NCBI GenBank assembly: GCA_964471565.1
Contig: CAYYFK010000001.1
Coordinates: forward strand, 36,692-100,691
From: Candidatus Woesearchaeota archaeon
Lineage (GTDB): Archaea > Nanobdellota > Nanobdellia > SCGC-AAA011-G17 > PNOQ01
Direction: 5' to 3'
DNA: 64,000 bases
Shown: piece after piece, positions 2,035-61,750 of the stretch
How positions within the stretch are numbered: the stretch's first letter is position 1
How the letters are laid out: each line of letters starts with the position of its first letter
Position numbers and translations under genes: made by a program
The notes under the pieces: model-generated
Seen by the model: the letters and a program-made list of their open reading frames with translations, nothing else
Databases searched by the model: none
What the model was told of the DNA's origin: nothing

Positions 2035-2307
2035 TCAAAAGGACTTAATCTTAACTAGGAACTCAGAATTCTTTTTCTTTATCCTTTCAACAGCCAATAA
2101 CAAGGCTTTCTTAGGATCTTCCTTCCCATCCGTTTCAACAATCAAGATTGGATTGCCAACCAAAGGATGGTCTACGTTATAACCTGAAACCTTTATATGA
2201 GAGTCACTCCACAGTTCTCTCCGCAATACATTAGCTAGTGTATGGTCTTCCCCTTCTATCCTAATTTTGAGAGAACTTTTAGATTCTTCTAATATTTTTA
2301 GTTCCAT
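2035..2307 (-). CDS. rpoL: DNA-directed RNA polymerase subunit L (Rpo11)
   Basis: 90 aa. IRIEGEDHTLANVLRRELWSDSHIKVSGYNVDHPLVGNPILIVETDG matches the Rpo11 fold signature. Confidence 0.8.
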   Translation of the reverse strand: MELKILEESKSSLKIRIEGEDHTLANVLRRELWSDSHIKVSGYNVDHPLVGNPILIVETDGKEDPKKALLLAVERIKKKNSEFLVKIKSF

Positions 2308-2336
2308 ATTATAAAATTAGTGAAAATTCTCCTATT

Positions 2337-2933
2337 TTAAAGCTTTCGCTTTAACATCCAGATTCCTACATTTGTAGGGTATTTTTCTGATTTATGAAAT
2401 TTCATAGTTTTCTTTAAAATTATCTCTTTGGCTTCAATTCCAACAACTTCAAACTCATTTTCCTTAGATAATTTATCAATAAATGTTTTACTTTCAATTT
2501 TATGGATAGAATAAATACTATTAGAAATTTCCATTGCCTTTTCTAAAAAATTCTTATCCGCGTGTTCTTGTTGAACCCCGAAAGGAGGATTCATTACAAC
2601 GGTATCAACTTTCTCATCAAATTCCAATATATCCATTTTTCTAAAATGAACATTTTCAAATTTACAATTTCTAATTGCTACATCTAAAGCCCCATTATCA
2701 ACATCTAAAAAATATACTACTTTTGCTCCAAGCAACAAAGCACCAATGCCAAAAATTCCATTTCCACAACCCAAATCTGCAACAATCTTATTCTCAATAT
2801 CTCCTTGCATAAACGCATTCCAAAGAATATGTGCAGCTAATTCGGAATCAGTTGGATACTGTTCCAACTCAGGCTTAACATTTTCAAATTTTTCTAATTT
2901 AGATAATTCTATAGCTAACTTTTTCTTATTCAT
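2337..2933 (-). CDS. SAM-dependent methyltransferase, METTL5-like (putative rRNA adenine N6-methyltransferase)
   Basis: DLGCGNGIFGIGALLLGAKVVYFLDVD (motif I) and VVMNPPFG (NPPF amino-methyltransferase motif). 198 aa. Confidence 0.55.
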   Translation of the reverse strand: MNKKKLAIELSKLEKFENVKPELEQYPTDSELAAHILWNAFMQGDIENKIVADLGCGNGIFGIGALLLGAKVVYFLDVDNGALDVAIRNCKFENVHFRKMDILEFDEKVDTVVMNPPFGVQQEHADKNFLEKAMEISNSIYSIHKIESKTFIDKLSKENEFEVVGIEAKEIILKKTMKFHKSEKYPTNVGIWMLKRKL

Positions 2934-3384
2934 TTTTCTTCAACAAATCACCAATAGTTAAATTCTTATCTTTAAAATCTATTTCCTTGCTTTCTTTTTT
3001 TACATTAATCCTAGGCGCTTTTTCTATAAGTTCAATTTTCAAATAAAAATTTAGTTTCTTGGCTAATTTAAAATCTGGTTTCATTTTCCCAGATTCAATT
3101 TGATGAATTATCGATTCTCTTTCACCAACATCCCTAGCCAATTCTTCTTGTTTTAATCCTTTTTTCTCTCTTGCAGTTTTTATCAGTTCAGAATAATCTT
3201 CAACAATCACTTCAACATCTTCTTCTCTCCTCTCGAAGGTTTTCACTTCTCTAATAACTCTTGGCTCAGATATAGCAACTACTTGACCATGTTTGCTACA
3301 ATCTGGACAAACTTTTAACATAGAGCCTTCAACAATAGCATCAGTTAAGTTGCCTTCTTTCCCACACATTTCGCAAGTAGTCAT
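2926..3384 (-). CDS. mbf1: Multiprotein-bridging factor 1 (Zn-ribbon + HTH-XRE regulator)
   Basis: N-terminal CEMCGK...CPDCSKHG ribbon. C-terminal HTH segment LKQEELARDVGERESIIHQIESGK. Confidence 0.75.
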   Translation of the reverse strand: MTTCEMCGKEGNLTDAIVEGSMLKVCPDCSKHGQVVAISEPRVIREVKTFERREEDVEVIVEDYSELIKTAREKKGLKQEELARDVGERESIIHQIESGKMKPDFKLAKKLNFYLKIELIEKAPRINVKKESKEIDFKDKNLTIGDLLKKNE

Positions 3385-3387
3385 TTT

Positions 3388-4029
3388 CTAGATTAAAGCC
3401 TGTATACTTTCAATCTCATTAAATCCATTTAATAACTTTCCGTTAACAACAATTGAAGGAACTCCTGTAACTTTATACTTTTCCTTAAGAATTTCTACCT
3501 CGGTCAATCCAAGGTCATAATCAAATGAATAAATCCTTATGTTTTCATTCTCTTCATAAATAAAATCTAAAATAAATCCTTGTTTCTCACAAGAAGGACA
3601 TTTTTCTTTATCATTAGAATAAAAATAGAGTATCAAATCATAATCTGTTCCGCACTTTCTGTTTAAATCACTATAATATAAAAAATCATTAATTTCCAAC
3701 AGAGAATAATACGTTTTTAGAGTAAGAACTCTCTCATCTTCTTTTCCTAATTCACTTTCTAGCCTGGCTATCCTAAATCTAATTTCTTCATATTCTCCAC
3801 CAAGTTGGGAATTATCCTCCAAATATTCACAAGGATATTCGCCAAGTAATCTATACTGCAAATCATATCTCAATAGATCTGTCTTCATATCAGATAACTC
3901 ATTCAAAGTACCAGAATAATTTAAACTATTAACAAAAAATCCCAAAAGAAAAGCAACAGCAAAGATTAGAGTAGTAATTACAAAGGTCATAAAATAATAT
4001 TTTTTCGTTATCTTTCTTTTAACTACCAT
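3388..4029 (-). CDS. Membrane-anchored thioredoxin-fold (DsbA/glutaredoxin-like) thiol-disulfide oxidoreductase
   Basis: N-terminal TM helix. CPSC active site followed by VTGVPSIVVNGK (cis-Pro thioredoxin-fold signature). Overlaps the upstream GT2 gene by 7 nt. Confidence 0.5.
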   Translation of the reverse strand: MVVKRKITKKYYFMTFVITTLIFAVAFLLGFFVNSLNYSGTLNELSDMKTDLLRYDLQYRLLGEYPCEYLEDNSQLGGEYEEIRFRIARLESELGKEDERVLTLKTYYSLLEINDFLYYSDLNRKCGTDYDLILYFYSNDKEKCPSCEKQGFILDFIYEENENIRIYSFDYDLGLTEVEILKEKYKVTGVPSIVVNGKLLNGFNEIESIQALI

Positions 4030-5276
4030 TTTTGATTCCTCTGAAATATAAAATCAATGAATACCCCTAACCATATCGTCATAACAAACAACCCGTATAT
4101 GATTAAATAGACAGGTAGGACAAACCACCCATATTTAAATATTTTTTCTTTATGCGCTTCATGCGACCATTTTATCAAAACAGTAGCAAAGAACAACGCC
4201 ATAATAGCTAACGTTAACATGGTATATGATAACGAAAACCAGTGAAACTGTAAATTATCAAATAGGGATAAAAAATCAAAATTAATACCTTGTAGATTTG
4301 ATATCCAATTTAAGGTTTTTTGGGCACCTAAAAATAGCCCCATTAAAAATAGAAGGGCTATCAAAATCCCTGTGGCTAAAAAACTGGGAAATTCCATCAT
4401 TCCAAAATCTCCATATTGCCGATTAAACATCATTTTTCTATATTTCAAAGAATTGACAAGCCCTCCCTTGTACCACCTATTTCTCTGATGATAAAAAGAA
4501 ATTAGATTGTCTGGAGCAGAAGTATATGAGACCACATCTAATACTTGAACTAACCTATAATGGTGTTTCTGCAATCTCAATGATACTTCCAAATCCTCAG
4601 TTAAATTATTTTCAGAAAATCCCCCAATTTTAATCAAGACATCTTTCTTATACACACTAAACGGACCTGGAGCAACAGGAACACAATCTAAAAAAGACAT
4701 AGCATACTTGTAAAAAAAAGTTGCTAGATATTCTATCCACTGAAATTTTTCTATTATTTTTTTTGGATTTCTGACTTTTATAATTGGCAAAACACAGGCA
4801 ACTTCTTTATCTTCAAAATAAGGCAACATTTTTTGCAATGCTTCTTTATCAATAGTTGAATCCGCATCAAAAACAACAAAATACTCTCCTTTAGCAAGTT
4901 TCAGAGCATGATTGATTACTGCCCCTTTTCCCCTATTAACTTCAGAAATTAATTTAATCTTGCTATCTGAATACTTTTCAATAAACTCTTTAACAACTTT
5001 TTTTGTACCATCCTTGCTTCCATCGTCCATAACAAATAATTCTATCTTATCTTTTGGATAATTTAAATCCACAACAGATTTCATAGTTTTCCAAATTCTT
5101 TTTTTTTCATTCCAAGCAGGGATTGTAATACTAACTAAAGGAAATTTTTCAAGTTTTTTATTTTCTTTTTTTGGTTCATTAAAAATCCTATCTAACGCAA
5201 CAAGTAACCAGAAAATTAAGAAGAAGGAAGAAGTGTACAGTACAAATAAATAGAATATATCATAAAACTCAAGCAT
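4023..5276 (-). CDS. Family-2 glycosyltransferase, processive cellulose/chitin-synthase-like
   Basis: FVMDDGSKDGT, VVFDADS (D,D,D motifs), QRNRW (QxxRW processivity motif). TM helices at both ends. Confidence 0.7.
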   Translation of the reverse strand: MLEFYDIFYLFVLYTSSFFLIFWLLVALDRIFNEPKKENKKLEKFPLVSITIPAWNEKKRIWKTMKSVVDLNYPKDKIELFVMDDGSKDGTKKVVKEFIEKYSDSKIKLISEVNRGKGAVINHALKLAKGEYFVVFDADSTIDKEALQKMLPYFEDKEVACVLPIIKVRNPKKIIEKFQWIEYLATFFYKYAMSFLDCVPVAPGPFSVYKKDVLIKIGGFSENNLTEDLEVSLRLQKHHYRLVQVLDVVSYTSAPDNLISFYHQRNRWYKGGLVNSLKYRKMMFNRQYGDFGMMEFPSFLATGILIALLFLMGLFLGAQKTLNWISNLQGINFDFLSLFDNLQFHWFSLSYTMLTLAIMALFFATVLIKWSHEAHKEKIFKYGWFVLPVYLIIYGLFVMTIWLGVFIDFIFQRNQKW

Positions 5277-5924: not shown

Positions 5925-6647
5925 TTAGATGGAGCAGCACATTGTGTGAACCTCTTCATCTGGTGATAATTCATAGTTACAAGTAAGAATATGTCCATCT
6001 TGTGCCATCCATTGCCCAAATACACATTTAGTTTGTTCACCATTCTCACTATTATAGAAGTCACAAACTTCTTTAACATCTACTGGAGTAGAATTATAAA
6101 GACCTGAGAAAGTCAATAAACAGTCTTCCTCAAACATATCCAAAACGTCTTTTTCCTCACAACACATCGTATCCATCTTAATCCAGTGTATAGCTCCTCC
6201 CTCTTCAATAACTTCATCCCAATTATTAATAAGGTACTCATACTCGATTCCTTCATCACATGCCAATAAAGTAGAGGTAGCAATTTCCCCATAAGGAGTC
6301 ACATACTCTACAACAGATTCACTGAATGAACAGGTACCAGAACAAAACTCACTTCCAGTCAAAACTCCATCTAAATTGTCATCTAATGATCTATATCCAG
6401 GATAAGTATAATTATTACCTTGGCTGTCTTCATTTATCTGGACAGTTGGGAATACATCACATGCTACTCCACCTGGGAAATCCTCACTTTCTTCAGTATC
6501 TTCATCTCCCTCATTACCTGGTTTCAATTCTTCATCAAAGGGCAACCCAAAATATCCTTCACCAAAAGGACTCTCTTGGGCCTTAGTACATCCAGTCAAC
6601 CCAATAACTATCATCATCAAAAAAACTCCAAAGATTAATCTTTTCAT
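5925..6647 (-). CDS. Secreted acidic Cys-rich protein with lipobox-like signal
   Basis: MKRLIFGVFLMMIVIGLTGCTK (L-T-G-C). Highly acidic, 13 Cys. Confidence 0.55.
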   Translation of the reverse strand: MKRLIFGVFLMMIVIGLTGCTKAQESPFGEGYFGLPFDEELKPGNEGDEDTEESEDFPGGVACDVFPTVQINEDSQGNNYTYPGYRSLDDNLDGVLTGSEFCSGTCSFSESVVEYVTPYGEIATSTLLACDEGIEYEYLINNWDEVIEEGGAIHWIKMDTMCCEEKDVLDMFEEDCLLTFSGLYNSTPVDVKEVCDFYNSENGEQTKCVFGQWMAQDGHILTCNYELSPDEEVHTMCCSI

Positions 6648-6716
6648 TATATCACCTCAATTATTAATTAATAAAACTAAGATAGTTCAATATATAATCT
6701 TTATTCTGGACAAGCC

Positions 6717-7808
6717 CTAATAAACAGGAAATCTCAAAATGGCAGCAAATCCGCCCATTTCTTTCAGTTGAGTACCTTCTCTAGTTTCAATAGAAATAAT
6801 TTTAAACTCGCTTCCAGAATCTTCGGCTAATTTCTCCAATTCTTCCATATCTTTATCTTCCAAATCTTCAGATAATAAAAGAACTTTAACCGCCCCTAAT
6901 TCCAAGGCCTTACGAACTTCATCTTTTCCATAAGAAACTTTATCAGATTCAGTAGCCAATTTTTGAAAAAATTCTTGCATTATTTTCTTTTCTTCAACAA
7001 TAACTTCATTTGCCAAAATATCTTGACTTTTATCTACAAGCTCATTCAAACCAAAGGTTCCAGTATAACCTAAATCTTTAACACCAACAACTTTATTTTT
7101 CAAAGCAGCATACATATAATCTCCTTTCAAAAAATCTTCTTTAGTTGGCCCAGGCCCTCCGACCAAAATACCTTTCAACGTTTTCATTTCAAAAAATTCC
7201 TTATTCGCTGTCGCACCAACTTTCTTAAAAAACTCTTTAGCTGCAATATCTCTTAATCTAGCATACCTCTGTTGAGATTGGCCTCCTTTTGTTGTTTTCC
7301 CAGGAACATTAGAAGTAAAACTGGCAAGTTCAACAATAGTCGTTCCTTTCAATAACCCAATAGTTCCCTCTCTCCTATCCACAACAACCAAACCATACGC
7401 TTCATCATAATCCAAAAACTTTTTTAGAGGTTCAGTAACAAAAGTCTGATCGCATCTATACATCCGAATATTCAAAACCTCTGGAGGTTCAAGACTAAAA
7501 ACTTCAAGCTTTGGATGTCCTTCTTTCTTAGAAACATTACCTGCAAAAACAGCAAGACCGTTTGTAGGTGTTTTTCCAACAACCCTTAGATGCCTAATAG
7601 CTTTCTCTAAAGAATTAATTACATTATCTCTAGTTTGCTTATCTTTAATATTACTTGCAGTACCTTGCTCTTGTGATAAATGAGAAATAATTTTTGTCAA
7701 TTCATATCCTGCAGGAATATACACACTAACTAACTCCGTATGTCTCCCTCTAACACTATCTAAATTCGAAATAAATCTTTTTAATTTCTGTTTAGTTTTT
7801 GTATCCAT
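6717..7808 (-). CDS. prf1: Peptide chain release factor aRF1
   Basis: GGQSQQRYARLR (GGQ motif) and NIKD (NIKS-like). 363 aa. Confidence 0.9.
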   Translation of the reverse strand: MDTKTKQKLKRFISNLDSVRGRHTELVSVYIPAGYELTKIISHLSQEQGTASNIKDKQTRDNVINSLEKAIRHLRVVGKTPTNGLAVFAGNVSKKEGHPKLEVFSLEPPEVLNIRMYRCDQTFVTEPLKKFLDYDEAYGLVVVDRREGTIGLLKGTTIVELASFTSNVPGKTTKGGQSQQRYARLRDIAAKEFFKKVGATANKEFFEMKTLKGILVGGPGPTKEDFLKGDYMYAALKNKVVGVKDLGYTGTFGLNELVDKSQDILANEVIVEEKKIMQEFFQKLATESDKVSYGKDEVRKALELGAVKVLLLSEDLEDKDMEELEKLAEDSGSEFKIISIETREGTQLKEMGGFAAILRFPVY

Positions 7809-52613: not shown

Positions 52614-53492
52614 ATGGAAATTATGATTATAGCATTGGTTTTTATCTATCTAATAATTTCTACAATTTCAGATATAAAAACTACAGAAATTCCTGATTTC
52701 TTAAATTATTCATTTATTTTTATTGGAATTTTCATTTATGGATTAAAAACGTTAGTGACTAATAATAATACTTATTTTCTATCCTCGATAATAACAGTAG
52801 GCATATTTTTTATACTTGGGGCAATTATGTACTACACTAAACAGTGGGGGGGAGCAGATTCAAAATTACTTATGGGTCTAGGGGCATTAATCCCAATATA
52901 TCCAGCGATTCTGTTAAATACTTTTTCACTTAAAACTTCAACATTTTTGGGAATAGATCTCTTTCTAAATCTATTAGTAGTTGGGGCAATTTATTCATTG
53001 CTTTTCGTTATCCACCTTATTATAAAAAACAGAAAAAAATTCAAAAAAGAATTCAAAAAAATATATCAAAAAAAGGAAGTAAAACTATTCGAAAAGATTA
53101 TGTGGATTTCAATAATCCTAATTAATGTACTTAGTTTTTTCTTATTTCAAAATAGTTTACAAAAGAATTTTGTGATTACAATCTCTTTGATTATCCTTTT
53201 ATTTAATTATTTAACAATCTCTATAAAAGCTATAGAAAACGTTTCAATGTATAAAACAATATCTACAACAAGATTGAGAGTTGGAGACTATATAACAAAA
53301 GAACTAAAAACCAACAATAAGATAATATACAAGCCAATAGTTCATGGAATAAATGAAAAACAAATGAAAGAAATAAAAAAACATTTCTCAAAAGTCGAAG
53401 TAAAGGAAGGGATAGTCTTCGCACCTGTATTTTTAGTTGCAACAACAATAACTTTATTTTTCGGAAATATACTTCTCTACTTATTACCCTAA
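52614..53492 (+). CDS. Prepilin/preflagellin peptidase (A24 family; PibD/FlaK-like)
   Basis: ISTISD(20)IKTTEIPD (D-x7-IPD) and WGGAD(82)SKLLMGLG (GxGD-K). Asp-Asp spacing of 62 matches FlaK/PibD. At least 6 TM helices. Confidence 0.8.
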   Translation: MEIMIIALVFIYLIISTISDIKTTEIPDFLNYSFIFIGIFIYGLKTLVTNNNTYFLSSIITVGIFFILGAIMYYTKQWGGADSKLLMGLGALIPIYPAILLNTFSLKTSTFLGIDLFLNLLVVGAIYSLLFVIHLIIKNRKKFKKEFKKIYQKKEVKLFEKIMWISIILINVLSFFLFQNSLQKNFVITISLIILLFNYLTISIKAIENVSMYKTISTTRLRVGDYITKELKTNNKIIYKPIVHGINEKQMKEIKKHFSKVEVKEGIVFAPVFLVATTITLFFGNILLYLLP

Positions 53493-53789
53493 TGCCCTTC
53501 TAACATCAACTATTTCAGCAGAAGCAACTTCTTCAAATTTTTCTATAGTTTCAGCCAAAGGATCTGGACTTCCAATTGATTCGTCCATTACAAAAATAAT
53601 TTTTAAAGCATTTAAACCAAACGCAACTGGTTCAATTTCAGTTTTCATATCTGAATCCTCATTAATAAATTTTTTAATTTCAGATTTTACTTTGATTTCT
53701 AAATCTTCAAGATTTATTTCAGGATTTTCTGGCATAATCTTAATAGTTAGAATAACATCGGCCATTTTAATTTGGACCCTCAAAACCAC
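53484..53789 (-). CDS. ef1b: Elongation factor 1-beta
   Basis: MADVILTIKIMPENPEINLEDL...VAFGLNALKI. Confidence 0.85.
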   Translation of the reverse strand: MVLRVQIKMADVILTIKIMPENPEINLEDLEIKVKSEIKKFINEDSDMKTEIEPVAFGLNALKIIFVMDESIGSPDPLAETIEKFEEVASAEIVDVRRALG

Positions 53790-54003
53790 AGCTAGGGCAA
53801 ATATATTTTATAACCTTTACTCTGCAAGACTTGCATCTAATTATTTCTTCTTTTCCACAATCTGGGCACTTAAAACAAACAGAAGCATCCAAACTTCCCA
53901 TTTTTGTTTTGCATGAACAACAATATTTTTCTTTTTTTGCCATAATAGAATTTTGGGAACATACTTTATTTATAAAGGTTTTGTTAGTCTCTAGGGACTT
54001 CAT
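53767..54003 (-). CDS. Zn-ribbon protein
   Basis: Four CxxC pairs in 78 aa (CCSCKTK...CFKCPDCGK...CKSCR...CPSCG). Confidence 0.55.
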   Translation of the reverse strand: MKSLETNKTFINKVCSQNSIMAKKEKYCCSCKTKMGSLDASVCFKCPDCGKEEIIRCKSCRVKVIKYICPSCGFEGPN

Positions 54004-54577
54004 GGTGTTCTAAACATCTTGCTTCATATTCTTGATCACCAACCAAAATTAAAGGACTGTTATAGTGGGCGGGTTTTCCGTCAATTAATCTTTGTGTTCT
54101 ATTTGCCCTTTTACCACATCCCTCATAGTCACATGCAGCGGGCAATTTAACAACTTTGTCGGCCATCGCCAATAAACTTGACATAGGTCCAAAAGGCTCT
54201 CCCTTAAAATCTAAATCTAGTCCAGAAACTAAAACTCCCTTTCCAATAACTTGAAAATCTCTTACTATTTTAATTAATTCATTAGAAAAAAAGTTAGCTT
54301 CATCAAATGCAAAAACATCTATATCTTTCAACACATAATCTTCTAATCCTTTCCAGGGATTTTCTGAATTTAAAATTTTAGCATCTATTTCTTCACTCAT
54401 ACCTCTACTAACAAGTTTATCTTCAGAAAAACGATTATCTATATCTGGTTTAAAGGCAATATAATTCAGATTAGTATGATCCAAACGTTTCAATTCTAAA
54501 ATTAATCTTCCTGTTTTTCCAGATTTCATCGGTCCACAAATGACTTCCAAGTATCCGGGTGTATAAATGTCTGACAT
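53984..54577 (-). CDS. tdk: Thymidine kinase
   Basis: VICGPMKSGKT (P-loop) and C-terminal CDYEGCGKRANRTQR Zn motif. Confidence 0.85.
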   Translation of the reverse strand: MSDIYTPGYLEVICGPMKSGKTGRLILELKRLDHTNLNYIAFKPDIDNRFSEDKLVSRGMSEEIDAKILNSENPWKGLEDYVLKDIDVFAFDEANFFSNELIKIVRDFQVIGKGVLVSGLDLDFKGEPFGPMSSLLAMADKVVKLPAACDYEGCGKRANRTQRLIDGKPAHYNSPLILVGDQEYEARCLEHHEVPRD

Positions 54578-54622
54578 ACAAAAAAATAGAATTAAAAAAG
54601 AAATTAAAAAGATTTGTATACT

Positions 54623-55660
54623 TTAGACATCATCTCTGATTCCCTTATCAGTTATGTAAAACATACATTCTCCATCAGCTAACGCAGGAGCATCTACTAA
54701 CTTTGCAACTCTACTTCCTTTTTTACCTCTTCTCAAATAAAGTCTAGTTGTAGAAGCGTGTGCAACTATATGCCCCCCTATAGCTTCAGTTGGATCTCCA
54801 AAGAATGTATCTGGTTTAGACATAACTTGATTTGTTACATAGACAGCAATATTATAAGTATGTGCCAACTTCAATAATATATGCATATGCTTATTCAGTT
54901 TTTGTTGTCTCTCAGATAATGTTCCCCTTCCAATAAACTCACTTCTAAAATGACTCATTAAAGAATCGACTATAACAATTTTCACAGGAACGTTTTCTTT
55001 ATTTATTAGTTCTTCAACTTTCTCTGCCAATAACATTTGGTGGTCAGAATTAAAAGCTCTAACAACCTTAATATTCCCCAGTAATTCTTCAGCATTCAAA
55101 CTGTTCTCCTCTGCTATTTGTTGTATTCTTTCAGGTCTAAATGTTCCTTCGGTATCAATCCAAACCACTGCTCCTCCAGCACCTCCTTCTTTTACAGACA
55201 TTTGAGCACTAACTGCTAGCTGATGTGCCAAAGCCGTCTTGCCACTTCCGTAGGCTCCATAACACTCAGTAATCGAACCAGATTCAAACCCTCCTCCAAC
55301 AAGTTCATTGAAAGCATTGCTCCCAGTAGTTATCTTAATCACACTTTCTCTTTTTTTGAGTAAATCCAAACCAGTCTCAAACCCCATATTCAATTTGTCT
55401 CTAGCAACTTGAATTATTTTTCTGGCAATTGCATCAGAAACTCCAGAAGCTTCCCCTAACTTGGAGGGGGATGCTACTGCAACACTCAATAAAGTGTCAT
55501 ATCCTGCATCCTGCAATTTTTCAGCCGTAGCAGGCCCAACTCCTGGCAAATCATTAATAGTAAAATTCTCTTCTACTAAATTTTCTTCTTCAACAATATT
55601 AGTTTCTTCAATATCTTTATTAGATTCCTCAATATTTTCATTTATTATCTCTTCACTCAT
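54623..55660 (-). CDS. radA: DNA repair and recombination protein RadA
   Basis: HhH LPGVGPATAEKLQDAGY, Walker A GAYGSGKT, Walker B VIVDS. Confidence 0.9.
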   Translation of the reverse strand: MSEEIINENIEESNKDIEETNIVEEENLVEENFTINDLPGVGPATAEKLQDAGYDTLLSVAVASPSKLGEASGVSDAIARKIIQVARDKLNMGFETGLDLLKKRESVIKITTGSNAFNELVGGGFESGSITECYGAYGSGKTALAHQLAVSAQMSVKEGGAGGAVVWIDTEGTFRPERIQQIAEENSLNAEELLGNIKVVRAFNSDHQMLLAEKVEELINKENVPVKIVIVDSLMSHFRSEFIGRGTLSERQQKLNKHMHILLKLAHTYNIAVYVTNQVMSKPDTFFGDPTEAIGGHIVAHASTTRLYLRRGKKGSRVAKLVDAPALADGECMFYITDKGIRDDV

Positions 55661-55919
55661 CTTCTTCTGCCTCCCATTCTGATTGTTGCATTAACAACTC
55701 TTCCTGTGCTTTCTGCAAAACAAGTATGGCTTTGATTAAATCCTGTCGTCTTAAGTTTAAGGACTCAGATCTCCATATATCTTCTCCTTTTTTCTTATAA
55801 CTCCTAGTTAAAGAAACCGTCTTAAATTCTACCTTATTTTCATTAAATGTCTTTTCATTACTCCATATTGCAGCCTCTATGGCTCCAGATTTATATTTAT
55901 TTATTGGTTTATTTACCAT
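55653..55919 (-). CDS. Small PC4/Sub1-like putative ssDNA-binding protein
   Basis: 88 aa. KKGEDIWRSESLNLRRQDLIKAILVLQKA resembles the PC4 C-terminus (RKGISLNPEQWSQLKEQI). Overlaps the radA start by 8 nt. Confidence 0.3.
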   Translation of the reverse strand: MVNKPINKYKSGAIEAAIWSNEKTFNENKVEFKTVSLTRSYKKKGEDIWRSESLNLRRQDLIKAILVLQKAQEELLMQQSEWEAEEDE

Positions 55920-56975
55920 TTAAATACCTCCTTTGCTTTCGCATTTTGTTTCAATTTCAGATAATTCGCCAAAAGTTGGCAAAACAGACTGACTATTATC
56001 TATTTTAAACCTATTTAATTTTGACAGGACTAATTTTTCGCTTAGTTTTTCATAACAAGTAACTTCAATCAAAGTAATGCCTTTTTCAAAACAAATGTTT
56101 CTTTTTATTTTGTCTCTTAATTTTTGTCTTTCAAATTCTTCATAATTTTTCCAAAACATAGTACTACTAAACTCGAAATGTTGTCTTCCCTGATACTCAA
56201 AAGCCAATTTTAATCTAGGAATAAAAATATCTAACTCAAGTTTTACTCCTAAAGCAGCCCAATCATGAATTATTATTATTTCATTTGGAAATAAATTTCT
56301 AACATAAAGTAAAAGTTCCTGCTCCTTTCTAAAATTATTGCCAATAATAGGCAAACCTAATTTTAACCTTCTTTTATTCTCTTTATCTCTATTCCTCGCA
56401 CGATATTTTCTACTTAGCCCCCCATGGTATTCTCTATGTTTTTTTCTGTGTTCTACAAGCTTAGAATATGCATACTTTTTACTACATAATTTACATCTTT
56501 TGCCTCTAAAATTTTCCAAAACCGCCCCACAACCTAAACATTTGGGTTCTGGAAGTAAAGATTTTCTCAAAAGTTTAAGTTTATTATAATATTTTCTAGC
56601 TATCTCAGACTTTCTCTCTTTATTCCTTTCTCTCCATTTACGATCATTCTCTTTCTTGAGTTCCTTATTCTCTTCCCTCCATTTTTTATGTTTTAGCCTT
56701 AATCTCTCCTTATTTTTAAACTCCCAATCTTTTTTGTAGCTTTTTCTGTATTCTTCAACACAACCTTCACACACCACAGCATTTTTATTTAATTCAGTAA
56801 CATCTTTACTACAAACCCTGCAAAATCTAACCTTCATCAATCCCAAATTTTTAGCTTTTTTTACTATAGTATGAATAGGAAATTTTAATTGCTCAGATAA
56901 AATTTTATTTTTAAGAGTTGGATAGTTAATTTTTAAATATTCTATTTCTTTTTCTTTCCAGCTCATTAACATCAC
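55920..56975 (-). CDS. Multi-Zn-ribbon protein fused to a DUF559/Vsr-like PD-(D/E)xK endonuclease domain
   Basis: Four CxxC pairs separated by a K/R/E-rich coiled region. C-terminal LELDIFIPRLKLAFEYQGRQHFE (DUF559 core). True start probably an internal ATG with a GGAAGG RBS. Confidence 0.55.
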   Translation of the reverse strand: MMLMSWKEKEIEYLKINYPTLKNKILSEQLKFPIHTIVKKAKNLGLMKVRFCRVCSKDVTELNKNAVVCEGCVEEYRKSYKKDWEFKNKERLRLKHKKWREENKELKKENDRKWRERNKERKSEIARKYYNKLKLLRKSLLPEPKCLGCGAVLENFRGKRCKLCSKKYAYSKLVEHRKKHREYHGGLSRKYRARNRDKENKRRLKLGLPIIGNNFRKEQELLLYVRNLFPNEIIIIHDWAALGVKLELDIFIPRLKLAFEYQGRQHFEFSSTMFWKNYEEFERQKLRDKIKRNICFEKGITLIEVTCYEKLSEKLVLSKLNRFKIDNSQSVLPTFGELSEIETKCESKGGI

Positions 56976-56998
56976 CTTCCTTTCGGGTTTTTTTCATT

Positions 56999-57017
56999 CC
57001 CCATTCAAAAAATGGGG
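56999..57017. other. Perfect 7-bp inverted repeat hairpin (CCCCATT-caaaa-AATGGGG)
   Basis: Seen directly. Lies between the DUF457 gene 3' end and the nuclease gene start, next to a T7/A7 run. Confidence 0.5.
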
Positions 57018-57059
57018 AGGTGTTTAAGCTAGGGTAGTAGGACTTATTTATAAACTCTT

Positions 57060-57075
57060 TTGCCGTGCGTGGCAA
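57060..57075. other. GC-rich hairpin (TTGCC-gtgcgt-GGCAA) about 20 nt downstream of the DUF457 gene stop
   Basis: Seen directly. GC-rich against an AT-rich background. Confidence 0.45.
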
Positions 57076-57093
57076 GCTGGCAAGAAGAAAGAT

Positions 57094-57564
57094 TCAAAAC
57101 AACAAAAACCCAATCCCAACTAAAACAGCTATAAAAACAACCCACTCTAAAAATCCGCCAACTTTGATAAATCCATTAACTCGGGTCTTATTCAAAGGAA
57201 AAAAGAAATATAATCCCCTAGTACTTAACATATCAACAATCAAGTGACTCATATATCCTAAAAAGAAAGCTCCTGCCCATAGAGTCTTATCAAATACCAT
57301 AAATAAAAAGTAGATAAAAAATGGAAACCACACTGTATGCATAAACCCTCTATGTCCGAATAACAAATTCAATAACCAAGATAAAGGTTTAATCCTACTT
57401 CCCAATTTACTAAAAGGATGATCCAAATCTGCCAAAACAGCAGAAACAACACATATAGAAACAAAAAGAACCTTCTCACTTATATTAAAATACTCAATCA
57501 TGAATAGTCCAACCAAGAGACCAAAAGCCAGGTGGGTTTTGAACATCATATCAATAAAAAGCAA
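57094..57564 (-). CDS. Membrane-bound metal-dependent hydrolase (DUF457/YdjM-like)
   Basis: MFKTHLAFGLLVGL...ADLDHPFSKLG...GHRGFMHTVWFPF (His/Asp-rich TM protein). Confidence 0.6.
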   Translation of the reverse strand: MLFIDMMFKTHLAFGLLVGLFMIEYFNISEKVLFVSICVVSAVLADLDHPFSKLGSRIKPLSWLLNLLFGHRGFMHTVWFPFFIYFLFMVFDKTLWAGAFFLGYMSHLIVDMLSTRGLYFFFPLNKTRVNGFIKVGGFLEWVVFIAVLVGIGFLLF

Positions 57565-57580
57565 AGAGGTTATTTAAATA

Positions 57581-58116
57581 TTACTTTTCATAATGTTTCC
57601 TGTCTAACTCTCTAAATGCATCTTTAGAAGGTTCTGGAATTAATCTATAGTCTAATAAAGTCAATCCTCCTCTAGAAAAAGGGTTACAATTTTTAATAGA
57701 AACTATGACTCCATTATTAGTTTGAAAAGCATCATACAAATTTTCCAAAATATGCCCATATTCTCTACTTCTAACTCCAAAACTTTTATCATCCCACGCA
57801 GTAACAAAAGGAGTATTTTCATTTGGTTTAGTCAATCTCATTCTCAACAAAGCATTAAAACGATCCTTCTCTCCAGATATAAATTTATCATATAATAAAA
57901 TAGAACTTAGGTCTCTTCTCTTAAAAATCAAGTCTTCAGGAACAAGGGTATTTCTTCTATCTTCAAAACCATACTCTTTTCCTAACTCAATGCCAAATCT
58001 TCTTCTAACTCTTTAGTTCCTCTCTCATGCTGTCCAACAAAATCCCAACCCAAATTGATACCAATAACTTTTCCATACTCTACAACTACATCAGTATCAT
58101 GAGTAGCTCTCTTCAT
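57581..58116 (-). pseudogene. Frameshift-disrupted gene of unknown function (44-aa N-terminal piece 57982..58116 plus 116-aa ORF 57581..57931 in another frame)
   Basis: ATG at 58116 abuts the RPA stop. Frame 1 stops at 57982. A second frame is open from 58015 through 57581. The frames overlap 57982-58015 and differ by 1-2 nt. Confidence 0.5.
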
Positions 58117-58117
58117 A

Positions 58118-59095
58118 CTAAACTTCCTCCATCAACTCAACAGGATTCGCTTCTTTTATCTTTCTAGCTACAAACTCCAACCTGTTAAACATTTCATTGT
58201 TATTGACCTTCCCTTCAATGATTAGTTGTTTTCCTAGAGCCTCATTACGCCACTGGTCAAACAGTCCTAAAGAATAGTTTTCCATATTCTCTTGATTAAA
58301 AGAGAATAGTCCTTGAATAACATCTCCAAAGCCAACAACCCTTATATTTCCAGTGCCATCATCAAAAAAGAAATTTATCACTCCTCTCTTCTCGACATCA
58401 ACTTTCCCATGTTCCTTACAAGTACTGTCTTCCAAAACTTTCTTTCCACATTTAGTACAAACAGTAAAAAATCTTGGTTCAAATAGTTGAACAACTGTAC
58501 CATAAACTTCAACAAAATCTCCTGCTTTAATTTCTTCTATCTTTTTCCTGCCTAGCTTACTAGTTGTCTGAGAAACTTCTCCAACCTTCTCTCCTTTAGG
58601 ATTAACAATAATTTGTGAGCTATTACCCATATGAACCTCTACAAAGCCATTATTATCCCGAGAATAGCCATTTTTAATTTTAACAATATCATTAGCCTTA
58701 AACATATTTTTTTCAATTTCATTAATTATTGGTTCATCCCAAACTACAATTCTAATAGAGCCAGTTTCATCTCCAATTGTAAAATTAACAACTCTTCCAC
58801 TTCTTCCATTTTTATTAAAACTAACTACATCTCTAACTTCCATAACCTTTCCAACAATAGAAATTCCAGACATCCCTCGGGGAATCTCTTTCACTTTCAA
58901 ACTTTTTTCTGCAGAAACACTTTCAAATAATTTGACCCCTAACTGATTAGCAACTATATGTGCAGCGCCTTCCTTACTAATTAAATCAGACAACTGACTT
59001 ATTTTCTCATTAACTTTTTGTTCAATTTCTTCATTAGAAAGTCCCTTTTCCTCTTTTATTTTATCAATAATTTGATTATAACTGAATTTTAACAT
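58118..59095 (-). CDS. rpa: Replication protein A (OB-fold ssDNA-binding protein with C-terminal Zn ribbon)
   Basis: LISKEGAAHIVANQLGV (RPA N-terminal signature), OB-fold region, CTKCGKKVLEDSTCKEHG. Confidence 0.8.
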   Translation of the reverse strand: MLKFSYNQIIDKIKEEKGLSNEEIEQKVNEKISQLSDLISKEGAAHIVANQLGVKLFESVSAEKSLKVKEIPRGMSGISIVGKVMEVRDVVSFNKNGRSGRVVNFTIGDETGSIRIVVWDEPIINEIEKNMFKANDIVKIKNGYSRDNNGFVEVHMGNSSQIIVNPKGEKVGEVSQTTSKLGRKKIEEIKAGDFVEVYGTVVQLFEPRFFTVCTKCGKKVLEDSTCKEHGKVDVEKRGVINFFFDDGTGNIRVVGFGDVIQGLFSFNQENMENYSLGLFDQWRNEALGKQLIIEGKVNNNEMFNRLEFVARKIKEANPVELMEEV

Positions 59096-59814
59096 TTCAC
59101 CCCTTCCTCCCCAAAGTTTAGTTCTTCTTCAAAATCTATACCTATTTTTATAAGTATATCTTCTTCTAAACTTGGGGTAGTGAAGGATATTTTAAAAAGA
59201 TTGCCCTCTTTTTTATAACTAAAACCAGAAGATTCAGAATTCCAACAACTTTCTAAACTTCCACACTCATCTACTACTGATTTAATCTTATCAACTTTAC
59301 TTATAAACTTATCAAAATTGAAATCTTCAATAACATGATTTTCCTTAAATTCCTTGGTATATACTAAATTGTAGGTTTCCTCTTCAACTTGTTTAATAAT
59401 AGGAAAATTAGCTGAAACAACCAATCTATCTTCTTCTCTAGAAACATCATATCCTTCCCCTAAATCTGAAATAATTATGCTCTTCAACTTATCCCAATCA
59501 TTTGGGAAACACTCTATGTCTTTTTTCCACAATATGTACTCTCCAACAAAAACTGGATTTTCAAGACCTGCGTTATTCAATATTTTCATAACGGATTCCT
59601 CAGACTTTTCTTCTAATTGACTTTTCAAAAAATATTCTTCTTCATTAGCTAAAACATAATTTCTAATAACCTGTGTAGGAACCTCCCCAATTTCGAAGCT
59701 GTATTTCTGATTTTCAATTTTAAAAAGAATTGTAAGGGCCAAACTAACAGCAAGAATAGTAAAGATTAATACATATACCATTAATATTCCTCTTTTATTC
59801 ATGGACATCCCCAA
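59089..59814 (-). CDS. Pilin-like protein (class III-type N-terminus)
   Basis: MGMSMNKRG|ILMVYVLIFTILAVSLALTILF. Confidence 0.5.
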   Translation of the reverse strand: MGMSMNKRGILMVYVLIFTILAVSLALTILFKIENQKYSFEIGEVPTQVIRNYVLANEEEYFLKSQLEEKSEESVMKILNNAGLENPVFVGEYILWKKDIECFPNDWDKLKSIIISDLGEGYDVSREEDRLVVSANFPIIKQVEEETYNLVYTKEFKENHVIEDFNFDKFISKVDKIKSVVDECGSLESCWNSESSGFSYKKEGNLFKISFTTPSLEEDILIKIGIDFEEELNFGEEGVKC

Positions 59815-60365
59815 TCACCACCTATTTGGATATCATCTTCTACATAAAAATAAACATAGTCATCTTCATTTAATCTTTGGTATATCACTGGACCATCAAA
59901 AGTATACGGCGCAATAAAAAAACCATTATGCCAAGTAAATAATTTCATTTGCTGAACTGAATTCATATTACTCCACTTATCACCATTAGATAATCCAAAA
60001 ACAAATCCTCTTTTCTTTAATTTCCCATCTACATGGTAACAATATGTTATTTCATCCAAAAATCCCTGAACTTCTCCCTCAACTAAATCTTTATTTTCTC
60101 CATCAGCCATATAATCTTTTATCAAATCACTAATTAAAATATCTTCATCATCTAGCATTACTCCTGTATTCAAAAAATTAACAACATCTGGATAATAATT
60201 GTAATTTTTTACTTTATTATCTGCCTTAACAACACTTTCTATTTCGCCAGTATTTAAAGAACCAGTAAAGGCATAGATAGAATAGAATATCAATATTATA
60301 AAAATAAACATAATTGCCACTATATCTGACATTTCTATCTGTCCTCTTTTATTTTTTAAGATCAT
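59799..60365 (-). CDS. Type IV pilin-like protein (class III signal peptide)
   Basis: MILKNKRG|QIEMSDIVAIMFIFIILIF. Shares the IEMS motif with 13812..14342. Confidence 0.6.
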   Translation of the reverse strand: MILKNKRGQIEMSDIVAIMFIFIILIFYSIYAFTGSLNTGEIESVVKADNKVKNYNYYPDVVNFLNTGVMLDDEDILISDLIKDYMADGENKDLVEGEVQGFLDEITYCYHVDGKLKKRGFVFGLSNGDKWSNMNSVQQMKLFTWHNGFFIAPYTFDGPVIYQRLNEDDYVYFYVEDDIQIGGDWGCP

Positions 60366-60822
60366 TTACAACCTCAATCTCTAATATTCCATTTTTATTT
60401 TCAAATAAAACATAATGTTTAGAAAAACTGCAAAAATATCTTTCTCTTATATTTTTCATATTATTCAACAGACATTGACTTGTTAATTGTTTATTAATTT
60501 CCACTTCATCAACTAAATTTTTATCTAAATCAAATAATTTCAAATGCAACCCTAGTTTAGAATCTTCATCCAACCCAGTGCATTTTTTTATGTTTTCAAT
60601 ATCAAAATTATCTAAATTTATTTTACCAAACTCTTCAGAAGCAAGACAATCTTCAGAAAACAACAATCTAGAAACAACCAACTCATTTTCTATTTCCTCT
60701 ATTTCAAAATCTTGGATAAAATAAGCAGCAGCTCCAACCATAATCACTACAGCCACCAATAAAATAATAACTACATATACAATCATCTTTTGAGTCTCTT
60801 TACTTACTTGATATCCAGCCAT
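60349..60822 (-). CDS. Pilus-associated small membrane protein
   Basis: N-terminal TM KMIVYVVIILLVAVVIMVGAAAYF. Overlaps both neighbours. Confidence 0.45.
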   Translation of the reverse strand: MAGYQVSKETQKMIVYVVIILLVAVVIMVGAAAYFIQDFEIEEIENELVVSRLLFSEDCLASEEFGKINLDNFDIENIKKCTGLDEDSKLGLHLKLFDLDKNLVDEVEINKQLTSQCLLNNMKNIRERYFCSFSKHYVLFENKNGILEIEVVNDLKK

Positions 60823-61223
60823 GATGTATCTCCATAAACTAATAATTTATTATTTTTTAATTCAAATATTAACGGATCCAAACTAGAACTTATTGAGTCT
60901 CCTTTATCAACAAACTCATTATCCAAACAATAATATCCTTCGTAAAGATACTCTGAAGCTATGCTTCCAACCCTAACTTCACAATCACTTTTAGTCTCAA
61001 CTCTAAATTCCTTTTCAGTTTTTGAATAAGTGTATCTCAAATCTAAATCTCCTTCAGAAGTTAGAATAGAACTCTCAATAAGAGCGATATCTCTAGAAAT
61101 TAAATTTTGGTAAACTGCATTATTATTTCCTAAGTTAACTAATGCTGCAGCTATAATAAAAAACACTACAACTGACAATAAAGAATAACCTATCCATAAA
61201 TACAATCTATTCCCCTCTTCCAT
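60804..61223 (-). CDS. Pilus-associated small membrane protein
   Basis: N-terminal TM LWIGYSLLSVVVFFIIAAALVNL. Confidence 0.45.
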   Translation of the reverse strand: MEEGNRLYLWIGYSLLSVVVFFIIAAALVNLGNNNAVYQNLISRDIALIESSILTSEGDLDLRYTYSKTEKEFRVETKSDCEVRVGSIASEYLYEGYYCLDNEFVDKGDSISSSLDPLIFELKNNKLLVYGDTSWLDIK

Positions 61224-61252
61224 TGATCAATATTTAAAAATAGAGATTTATA

Positions 61253-61750
61253 TTAGTTTTGTTGAACAATATCAAAAGAAATCTTTCCTTCACTCTTTTC
61301 AACAGCTAATAAAAATCTTCCACTATTGCCTTCTTCAACATCTAAACTAGTAATCTTTTCAACTTTATTAAAAACAATATTTTCATCAAACAATCTAACC
61401 ATATCTTCAGAAACTAATTTTTCACACCCTTCATCAAAACACAAAGTGATACATGCGGCCATATAACACTCAGGAATATCAGATTCCTTATTATAGGCAT
61501 TTAAATATATTTCATCCCTATCAAAAGCATAAAAGGGCATTTCTTTTCTTTCACCTTCCTCAACATCATTAATCACATCTCCCAACTCTACTAAAGAAGC
61601 TTCTAAAAAATGAGCATCATCATTATCCATATCAGAAGTAAGAGTTCGAATAAAAGGTTCAACAATAAATATAATTCCAATAACAAGCACAGCACCAACC
61701 AAAAGCCCCATTAAAACACTAATGCTAAGTTTTGCTCCTCTTTTTTTCAT
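61253..61750 (-). CDS. Type IV pilin-like protein (class III signal peptide)
   Basis: MKKRG|AKLSISVLMGLLVGAVLVIGIIFIV. Confidence 0.55.
   Translation of the reverse strand: MKKRGAKLSISVLMGLLVGAVLVIGIIFIVEPFIRTLTSDMDNDDAHFLEASLVELGDVINDVEEGERKEMPFYAFDRDEIYLNAYNKESDIPECYMAACITLCFDEGCEKLVSEDMVRLFDENIVFNKVEKITSLDVEEGNSGRFLLAVEKSEGKISFDIVQQN

Follow-up and report, generated by a model that had tools for sequence, protein, structure and literature searches.

Phage free-standing homing endonucleases, such as the Seg and Mob enzymes behind the "intronless homing" of T4, are GIY-YIG or HNH enzymes encoded in phage genomes. The EDxHD family of I-Bth0305I (PDB 3R3P) includes free-standing genes as well as elements that target phage recA (PMC3239194). 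Selfish endonucleases also home into the recombinase locus as LAGLIDADG inteins of RadA and RecA, for example in Pyrococcus horikoshii RadA (PMC4513877, PMC5790916). Type II PC4-like proteins are represented by Borrelia BpuR (3NM7), PC4, YdbC and the PC4-like protein of phage T5, and the review devoted to this fold does not mention archaea in its main text (PMC7549692). Here we analyze a window of 64 kb (the whole stretch of DNA considered), of low GC content (~31%), whose closest relatives are metagenome-assembled genomes (MAGs) of Woesearchaeota/Nanoarchaeota. It carries three consecutive genes, encoding a 351-aa nuclease, an 88-aa protein here called p88, and the recombinase RadA (table 1). 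The p88–radA pair proves to be deeply conserved across the clade, while sequence comparison and fold prediction lead us to view the nuclease gene, with moderate confidence, as a homing endonuclease gene, Vsr-like and free-standing, that was inserted in the leader of that pair.

Distribution of the p88–radA Pair and of the Nuclease

A scan for p88 relatives, taking one genome per species, recovered 66 loci (numbered with the prefix L), in which homologs of the window genes were placed by tblastn. In 63 of them p88 is directly followed by a co-oriented radA, which lies within 450 nt in 62; this order is missing from L054, where the contig ends, and from L065 and L066, which hold the two most divergent p88 relatives. 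The pair is thus clade-wide. The C-terminal domain of the nuclease, searched for with a hidden Markov model (HMM), occurs in 5 of the 59 informative loci (L001–L004 and L012), each time directly upstream of p88, and the model detects no further copy elsewhere in those loci or in the window. A second copy of p88 or of the nuclease was also looked for in the window and the loci, and none was found. In at least 12 loci the slot is empty, with YdjM followed by p88 after 150–215 bp and no gene in between. Given this scarcity of the nuclease and the near constancy of p88–radA, the conserved unit is p88–radA and the nuclease an occasional occupant. An identical p88 occurs in ten metagenome contigs of independent assembly, all of which also contain the nuclease.

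A preliminary description of this DNA had treated the nuclease, p88 and RadA as a co-transcribed trio, and had proposed the recurrence of their linkage in other archaea as a test. The p88–radA half of that linkage recurs as just described; the nuclease half does not, its place being empty in many loci and taken by a LAGLIDADG gene in three. Since the trio is not conserved, two of the roles then entertained for the nuclease, recombination mediator and resolvase, are unlikely to be general, and the evidence favors the remaining one, a selfish homing-type nuclease. As to the flanking genes, an RPA homolog is found upstream of p88 in 52 and YdjM in 35 of the 66 loci, and a zinc-finger/EF-1β pair lies downstream in 40. 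Thymidine kinase (TK), which had been counted as part of a DNA-repair neighborhood, does adjoin radA here, but this holds in the window's small clade only (3/66 loci).

The Insertion Slot and Its Occupants

Two loci, one empty (L006) and one filled (L012), are 82–83% identical on both sides of a 1.12-kb insertion, which in L012 is flanked by a ~23-nt repeat of the Shine-Dalgarno/start region. In L030, L039 and L041 the slot holds a co-oriented gene for a free-standing endonuclease of the LAGLIDADG_2 family (E 1e-29 to 1e-33), which abuts p88. These three genes start with a helix-turn-helix (HTH) of the pattern W-x3-E-I-x2-L-K-x-N-Y…A-I-R-x-K-A-x-R-L-G-I, resembling the N-terminus of the nuclease. 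A homolog search with the HTH and zinc ribbon of the nuclease alone returned only a self-like fragment, and because of this the sharing of the HTH with other catalytic domains is drawn from the three LAGLIDADG loci only. The nuclease behaves as mobile elements do, in that it is sporadic at one conserved site and has empty alleles in relatives.

The neighborhood attracts selfish elements in general. In 14 relatives radA is one open reading frame (ORF) that contains in-frame LAGLIDADG inteins, one or two per gene, whose three sites correspond to window RadA residues ~141/142, ~159–199 and ~294–305; the intein-bearing ORFs include those of L011, L012, L013, L014, L021, L027, L037, L046, L049, L050, L051, L053 and L061. 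L012 holds both a radA intein and the upstream nuclease, and the radA of the window is intein-free. L046 is the only locus in which a gene separates p88 from radA: a 396-aa ORF (6312–7502) with a C-terminal CxxC…CxxC, TnpB/IS605-like by eye. Insertions of other kinds occur between YdjM and the nuclease promoter, where L001 has an extra 1.9 kb (2186–4067) holding LemA and a gene of the 2',5'-RNA-ligase family on the opposite strand, and where L002 (3619–4822) has a cyclophilin gene.

Putative Promoter and Leader

Upstream of the nuclease the elements follow in the order CTTGCCA repeats, TATA box, 8-bp hairpin, UGAAAAAAACCCGAAAGGAAGGUGAUG and start codon. The TATA box, TTTATAAAT, lies at 57046–57054, and the tandem CTTGCCA(G/C) repeats with a weak 5-bp hairpin lie upstream of it at 57060–57084. 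In relatives that lack the nuclease, p88 is preceded by the same TATA box, with a GACAAC/TTGNCA element farther upstream and a hairpin at the equivalent position. The preliminary description had seen two hairpins here as separators of sub-operons. One of them exists much as described, at 56998–57018 with an 8-bp stem and a 5-nt loop, while the other, at 57060–57075, is a mere 5-bp stem; an archaeal TATA box lies between the two, so both would belong to a promoter and 5' leader, and a terminator function was dropped. A scan for sigma-70 promoters and intrinsic terminators, a method unsuited to an archaeon, gave counts at shuffle expectation. The element just upstream of the TATA box (57060–57084), made of tandem 8-nt TTG(A/C/T)CA-type repeats or of GACAAC(C/A)GCAC, is conserved at equivalent positions in L001–L014, L035, L048, L053 and L054, and its sequence would possibly suit an operator for a regulator of radA expression.

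In the nuclease-free relatives the hairpin is followed by UGAAAnAAAA-N-SS-GNRA-SS-A-AGGAGG, which runs into the p88 start. Written with its optional bases for the window and L005–L064, this leader motif is UGAAAnAAAA-N-(U)SS-GNRA-SS(A)-AAGGAGG, and it abuts the ribosome-binding site of p88; the loop of an upstream hairpin often contains a second copy. The stems were tested without imposing complementarity, by means of an A-rich/SS-loop-SS pattern, and all 53 matching leaders proved to have a complementary stem, of four types (in one count, GC/GC 25, CC/GG 16, GG/CC 10, CG/CG 1). When the comparison is confined to 29 sequences with a tetraloop, pairing at both inner positions is 100%, and double substitutions number 9 at one and 11 at the other; the observed covariation score was reached by 0 of 500 shuffles, and slid controls collapse. 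The strict motif has one match in the window, and 70 in 633 kb of related loci, 66 of which fall within 200 nt upstream of p88; three of the other four stand directly upstream of inserted endonuclease genes. No match was returned by Rfam for positions 53400–59300 at E up to 1, so the motif is not a described RNA family.

The window contains two copies of the motif. Copy 1, on the nuclease side, is weaker (2 bp) and equivalent to those preceding the inserted endonuclease genes of L012, L039 and L041. Copy 2, the strict match of the window, coincides with the last codons of the nuclease ORF (…EIETKCESKGGI and the stop), and the tail of the nuclease is conserved yet disordered because it is translated p88 leader. 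In L039 the LAGLIDADG gene took over the motif and p88 has none. This layout, together with the L006/L012 comparison and L039, places both endonuclease types between the leader and the start of p88.

Architecture and Relatives of the Nuclease

The nuclease alignment comprises 38 sequences, with ~10 full-length homologs and many more that share only the C-terminal ~130 residues and whose N-termini are unrelated. The AlphaFold2 model (predicted local distance difference test, pLDDT, 85) and the sequence together predict a Myb/SANT-like HTH at residues ~5–46 (8–43 in the model), a first zinc ribbon at 52–72 (C52/55/69/72), basic helical hairpins at ~70–140, a second ribbon at 146–164 (C146/149/161/164), further helices at 171–205, a Vsr-like PD-(D/E)xK core at ~199–325 (56001–56381; α/β core 217–322 in the model) and a disordered tail at 330–351. 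The four zinc ribbons initially counted are in fact four CxxC dyads that make up two Cys4 ribbons.

Residues D249, E260, H266 and D288 are invariant among the 38 sequences, and E218/E220 are at least 90% conserved. The composite EDxHD motif consists of E25, D51, H64, H69 and D97 in Vsr, and of E170, D196, N208, H213 and D222 in I-Bth0305I (PMC3239194). The E…D…x…H…D residues of the nuclease match it in order and with comparable spacing, a correspondence made without residue-level superposition. In fold comparison Vsr and I-Bth0305I, rather than resolvases, rank highest; the catalytic domain has the Vsr-like PD-(D/E)xK fold of EDxHD homing endonucleases, and a modular N-terminal DNA-binding region like theirs is predicted. 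An Hjc-type Holliday junction resolvase was considered and rejected, neither the best structural relative nor a conserved presence pointing to one.

Pfam, NCBIfam and PADLOC scans assigned the nuclease to no family; there was no Vsr match in Pfam or NCBIfam, and the gathering score of PF04480 (DUF559) was not reached. PDB searches with single sequences and profiles likewise gave nothing for the nuclease or p88, and fold comparison alone worked. The labels "DUF559" and "PC4-like" first attached to the two proteins thus stand at the level of fold, and neither Pfam nor NCBIfam recognizes either protein. PHROG families annotated as homing or HNH endonuclease do match the nuclease (E 8e-13 to 4e-12). 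Furthermore, its domain is encoded in 82 phage genomes, where some copies stand alone between structural genes and are annotated as homing endonuclease. The surroundings of three closer homologs of the domain are virus-like arrays in which small ORFs predominate, and YopX, HNH_3 and NUMOD3 occur close by.

Mosaic Recombination and the Origin of the Nuclease Gene

Nucleotide identity between the window and L001 is 85–95% from TK to EF-1β and 91–95% from the C-terminal half of the nuclease through p88 to ~300 nt into radA, and drops to 66–81% in the N-terminal half of the nuclease and to 65–83% in the radA core (55381–54632). The L001 nuclease is itself composite: its N-terminal half is 94% identical to L003, and its C-terminal half 90–95% identical to the window and L002. 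The L001 radA core, which spans all three intein sites, is an outlier to all. Sharp breakpoints against L001, L002 and L003 fall within 56279–57016 (nuclease) and 54632–55381 (radA), and dS agrees with the mosaic (0.34–0.46 vs. ~1.3). In sequence terms these breakpoints indicate domain-scale recombination among lineages, with tracts that appear to end inside the nuclease gene and radA; homing may have caused them. The nuclease evolves under purifying selection (dN/dS 0.15–0.22), somewhat weaker than that on p88 and RadA (0.04–0.14).

Clade-wide, the core locus consists of a putative promoter, a structured purine-rich leader, p88 and radA, with RPA and YdjM upstream in most relatives. We put forward that the nuclease gene would be a later insertion into the leader. 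The Vsr-like (EDxHD-type) domain, targeted by the Myb-like HTH, the two zinc ribbons and the basic helices, would cut nuclease-free alleles at or near leader, p88 or radA, and RadA-dependent repair of the double-strand break from a nuclease-bearing allele would copy the gene in and co-convert its flanks. The insertion would borrow the host promoter and one leader/Shine-Dalgarno copy, the second copy staying intact for p88, and the operon would still work.

Several points weigh against this scenario. The cleavage site, the target and the homing event are things that we infer. L012 and L006 are the only clear near-isogenic filled/empty pair, and MAG-based mosaics may include assembly chimeras. 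The likeness between the HTH of the nuclease and that of the LAGLIDADG genes is weak (26–33% identity, HMM E ~4e-4, BLASTP E 0.007 in a single comparison) and suggestive only. The interval between YdjM and p88 is variable in general and receives ordinary cargo, the genes upstream of p88 in other loci including asparagine synthase, TrmB, an FAD oxidoreductase, LemA, 2',5'-RNA ligase, cyclophilin and nucleotidyltransferases, among others, which weakens a "hotspot" as evidence specific to homing. Moreover, the nuclease is fixed in its own clade (the window, L001–L004 and the ten contigs with identical p88), and its similarity ranking follows that of p88. Such fixation, with purifying selection, is equally compatible with the vertical inheritance of a domesticated gene.

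A domesticated host enzyme, the main alternative, co-translated from the same mRNA as p88 and RadA and working with them in end or flap processing, junction resolution or RadA loading, would indeed account for the tight coupling of the genes (TAAATG, then an 8-nt overlap into radA), the invariant catalytic residues, the selection maintained across a long divergence, and the presence of the gene throughout the window's clade and the ten contigs. We nonetheless judge it unlikely, given that the nuclease is missing from 54 of the 59 related genomes in which p88–radA is kept, that a LAGLIDADG homing endonuclease replaces it in three lineages, that its best structural relatives are Vsr and I-Bth0305I rather than resolvases, that its closest relatives are viral free-standing genes, and that its disordered C-terminal tail is merely translated p88 leader. 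Fixation could also mean that few empty targets remain and that the gene is a stranded remnant which no longer homes, kept by the leader of an essential operon or as an HTH/zinc-ribbon regulator of the p88–radA promoter. The more variable and mosaic N-terminal DNA-binding half, and the position of the gene directly behind a conserved promoter/operator-like element, would fit such a fate. Here the catalytic half tells another story, being the best conserved part of the protein (window vs. L001, dN 0.028, ω 0.08), and all putative active-site residues are invariant, which is unexpected for a decaying or purely regulatory protein; we hold this explanation to be improbable. To see in the Vsr-like fold a host mismatch-repair endonuclease of very-short-patch repair is scarcely credible, for the protein, at 351 aa, carries four DNA-binding modules more than Vsr, whose chain has 155 residues, its neighbors are YdjM and p88 with no adjacent cytosine methyltransferase, its distribution is sporadic, and Pfam and NCBIfam return no Vsr match.

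A homing endonuclease gene lodged in the leader, the origin that we favor, can be set beside the described systems. With I-Bth0305I the nuclease has in common the order and similar spacing of E…D…x…H…D and a modular N-terminal DNA-binding region that includes an HTH, and it adjoins radA, the archaeal homolog of the recA that EDxHD elements target. It differs in its setting, a free-standing gene within the operon leader of an archaeal chromosome instead of a group I intron or intein; in its DNA-binding part, where a Myb-like HTH is combined with two Cys4 ribbons and long basic helices and Pfam reports no NUMOD; and in lacking any sequence-level match to 3R3P or other PDB chains, the nuclease being known here from its sequence and model. 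With the T4 Seg and Mob genes it shares an intergenic position between conserved genes, co-orientation, sporadic occurrence, mosaic flanks and a slot used by different families, although the enzyme is Vsr-like, the genome is that of a DPANN cell, and cleavage and co-conversion are predicted. E. coli Vsr and DUF559/NGO0050-type proteins have the corresponding core, whereas the nuclease is multidomain, has neither a methyltransferase partner nor a DUF559 or Vsr match in Pfam, and behaves as a mobile gene. Finally, the LAGLIDADG inteins of RadA and RecA, of which 14 relatives carry examples in radA, home into the same recombinase locus, but the nuclease is a separate upstream gene and not an in-frame intein, next to an intein-free radA.

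If a homing gene it is, the EDxHD family would extend to a cellular archaeal genome, with a free-standing operon-leader site and a new DNA-binding architecture. Two unrelated endonuclease families competing for one slot beside a recombinase gene would offer a natural example, useful for understanding target choice by selfish nucleases and as a source of new long-target nucleases.

Fold and Likely Role of p88

In our view p88 and its leader would make a more consequential and more novel lead than the nuclease. The AlphaFold2 model of p88, built from a 48-sequence alignment (pLDDT 90.8), has the ββββα order of type II PC4-like topology, with strands at 4–11, 14–25, 28–42 and 49–56 and a helix at 58–86, which gives the predicted structure a probable place in the PC4/PUR fold class; the closest fold match is Borrelia BpuR (3NM7). 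More than 136 close homologs are known, all of 85–100 aa and with an acidic C-terminus. P5, N21, F32, K33, T34, K43, R50, R57 and D60 are invariant and W19, Y41 and W49 nearly so, and the strands carry the conserved W19, F32, K33, R39, Y41, K43, W49 and R50. From the fold and these residues p88 is predicted to bind single-stranded nucleic acid, in the service of RadA, of its own leader, or of both.

p88 has no Pfam match at E up to 10, PF02229 (PC4), PF04845 (PurA) and PF09901 (DUF2128) included, and 132 diverse members of its superfamily have none at E up to 0.01; p88 is a separate, undescribed sequence family. A Foldseek comparison with BFVD gave no match at E up to 0.001. When 1.84 billion representatives were searched with a profile, 1052 small proteins matched at E up to 1e-3, and the superfamily reaches well beyond the clade linked to RadA. 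Two distant members that were looked up occur without RadA, in L067 (4001–4279, cluster profile E ~1e-13) and L069 (4001–4261, E ~2e-10); one belongs to a virus-like array made up of small ORFs and including a DNA methylase, and the other lies beside regulators and DUF8091. Compared with the type II PC4-like proteins (BpuR, PC4, YdbC and that of phage T5), p88 has no sequence similarity and bears an acidic C-terminal tail, and no PC4-like protein has been described as a constant operon partner of RadA.

p88 could act as an accessory for handling single-stranded DNA (ssDNA), made together with RadA. Alternatively or additionally, it could regulate its own translation by way of its leader hairpin, as BpuR does. 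Pushed further, p88 might be no recombination factor at all but an RNA-binding autoregulator or general small nucleic-acid binder, linked to radA through shared regulation only. This is conceivable, if rather doubtful. BpuR, the closest fold match, autoregulates through its own mRNA; a covarying mini-hairpin exclusive to this locus abuts the p88 Shine-Dalgarno; and distant members of the superfamily are found in contexts, virus-like and other, that lack RadA. The linkage to radA is, on the other hand, near universal and tight, often within 60 nt, over p88 identities that range from 41% to 97%, and p88 resembles ssDNA-binding proteins in its acidic tail and in the aromatic and basic residues conserved on its strands. 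The two roles, moreover, are not mutually exclusive.

DPANN archaea have minimal repair toolkits. A family-less p88 locked to radA across dozens of species is a candidate for a missing recombination mediator or regulator, and the covarying 25-nt leader a candidate for its ligand. Our broadest proposal, offered tentatively, is that p88 may be a clade-wide RadA accessory of Woesearchaeota-type DPANN, a binder of single-stranded nucleic acid made stoichiometrically with RadA, the amounts of both being set by p88 on the GNRA leader hairpin; Vsr-like and LAGLIDADG genes would have repeatedly colonized that leader because it is invariant and next to a needed repair enzyme.

Gene Inventory and Further Observations

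The string of seven co-oriented ORFs from RPA to TK given in the preliminary description was recovered in full, on the minus strand and at the same coordinates (table 1). Its two junctions are equally plain in the sequence, the nuclease stop and p88 start forming TAAATG at 55920/55919, and p88 overlapping radA by 8 nt, counted from the predicted radA start codon (ATGAGTGA, 55653–55660).

Table 1. Features of the p88–radA locus and its surroundings, in window coordinates.
Feature	Position	Strand	Basis or remark
RPA/replication factor A-type ssDNA-binding protein (OB folds and C-terminal zinc motif)	58118–59095	-	NCBIfam replication factor A models, E 5e-47, below equivalog cutoffs
Frameshifted gene (fragments 57982–58116 and 57581–57931)	57581–58116	-	Comparison with intact ORF of L001
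YdjM/DUF457-family membrane metal-dependent hydrolase	57094–57564	-	PF04307, E 1.3e-25, 90.3 bits (cutoff 29)
Putative promoter of the nuclease–p88–radA unit (from sequence)	57046–57084	-	CTTGCCA(G/C) repeats, weak hairpin, TATA box
Leader hairpin, 8-bp stem, 5-nt loop	about 56998–57019	-	Inverted-repeat search, 100% complementary
Leader motif copy 1, Shine-Dalgarno and nuclease start	56970–56996	-	UGAAAAAAAC-CC-GAAA-GG-AAGGUGAUG
Nuclease, 351 aa	55920–56975	-	GTG start at 56975, or ATG at 56972; no Pfam or NCBIfam family
Leader motif copy 2 and Shine-Dalgarno of p88	55926–55953	-	UGAAACAAAA-UGC-GAAA-GCA-AAGGAGGU
p88, 88 aa, acidic C-terminal tail	55653–55919	-	No Pfam or NCBIfam family
RadA recombinase, intein-free allele	54623–55660	-	NF003301, 458.8 bits, 8.7e-138 (cutoff 259)
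Thymidine kinase (TK)	53984–54577	-	NF003296, 195.7 bits (cutoff 183)
HVO_2753-type zinc finger, then aEF-1β	downstream		Library matches

RadA is the archaeal equivalog (TIGR02236, 457.1 bits, cutoff 361), with further matches to PF08423 (300.8 bits, 8e-90) and HHH_5 (40.9 bits). Its N-terminus carries an acidic low-complexity extension of ~30 aa (MSEEIINENIEESNKDIEETNIVEEENLVEE…) whose sequence is not conserved, the alignments of relatives beginning at residue ~28–35. The RPA-type protein also matches the Pfam tRNA_anti-codon OB fold (3.6e-12). The SOS connection once drawn through YdjM rests on E. coli LexA biology and is not transferable to archaea. A known defence system, considered for the nuclease, p88 and the frameshifted gene, was unsupported, none of them belonging to a PADLOC, Pfam or NCBIfam family.

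The gene between RPA and YdjM, rightly called disrupted at the outset, lacks one T in a T run at ~57986–58005 relative to L001, and its 177-aa ORF is split into 44 + 116 aa. The same split is present in at least seven of the ten independent contigs with identical p88, which come from different samples, and the frameshift therefore belongs to the population and is not an error private to one assembly. The gene was found only in the window's lineage and L001, and the intact 177-aa protein has no Pfam or PADLOC match. By its sequence it could be either a fixed pseudogene or a candidate programmed frameshift.

Just upstream of RPA, at 59089–61750, five consecutive minus-strand ORFs encode small proteins with hydrophobic N-termini, which by eye recall archaeal type IV pilin-like signal peptides. 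A gene with the Pfam label Peptidase_A24 (prepilin peptidase) lies just downstream of EF-1β, at 52614–53492 on the plus strand.

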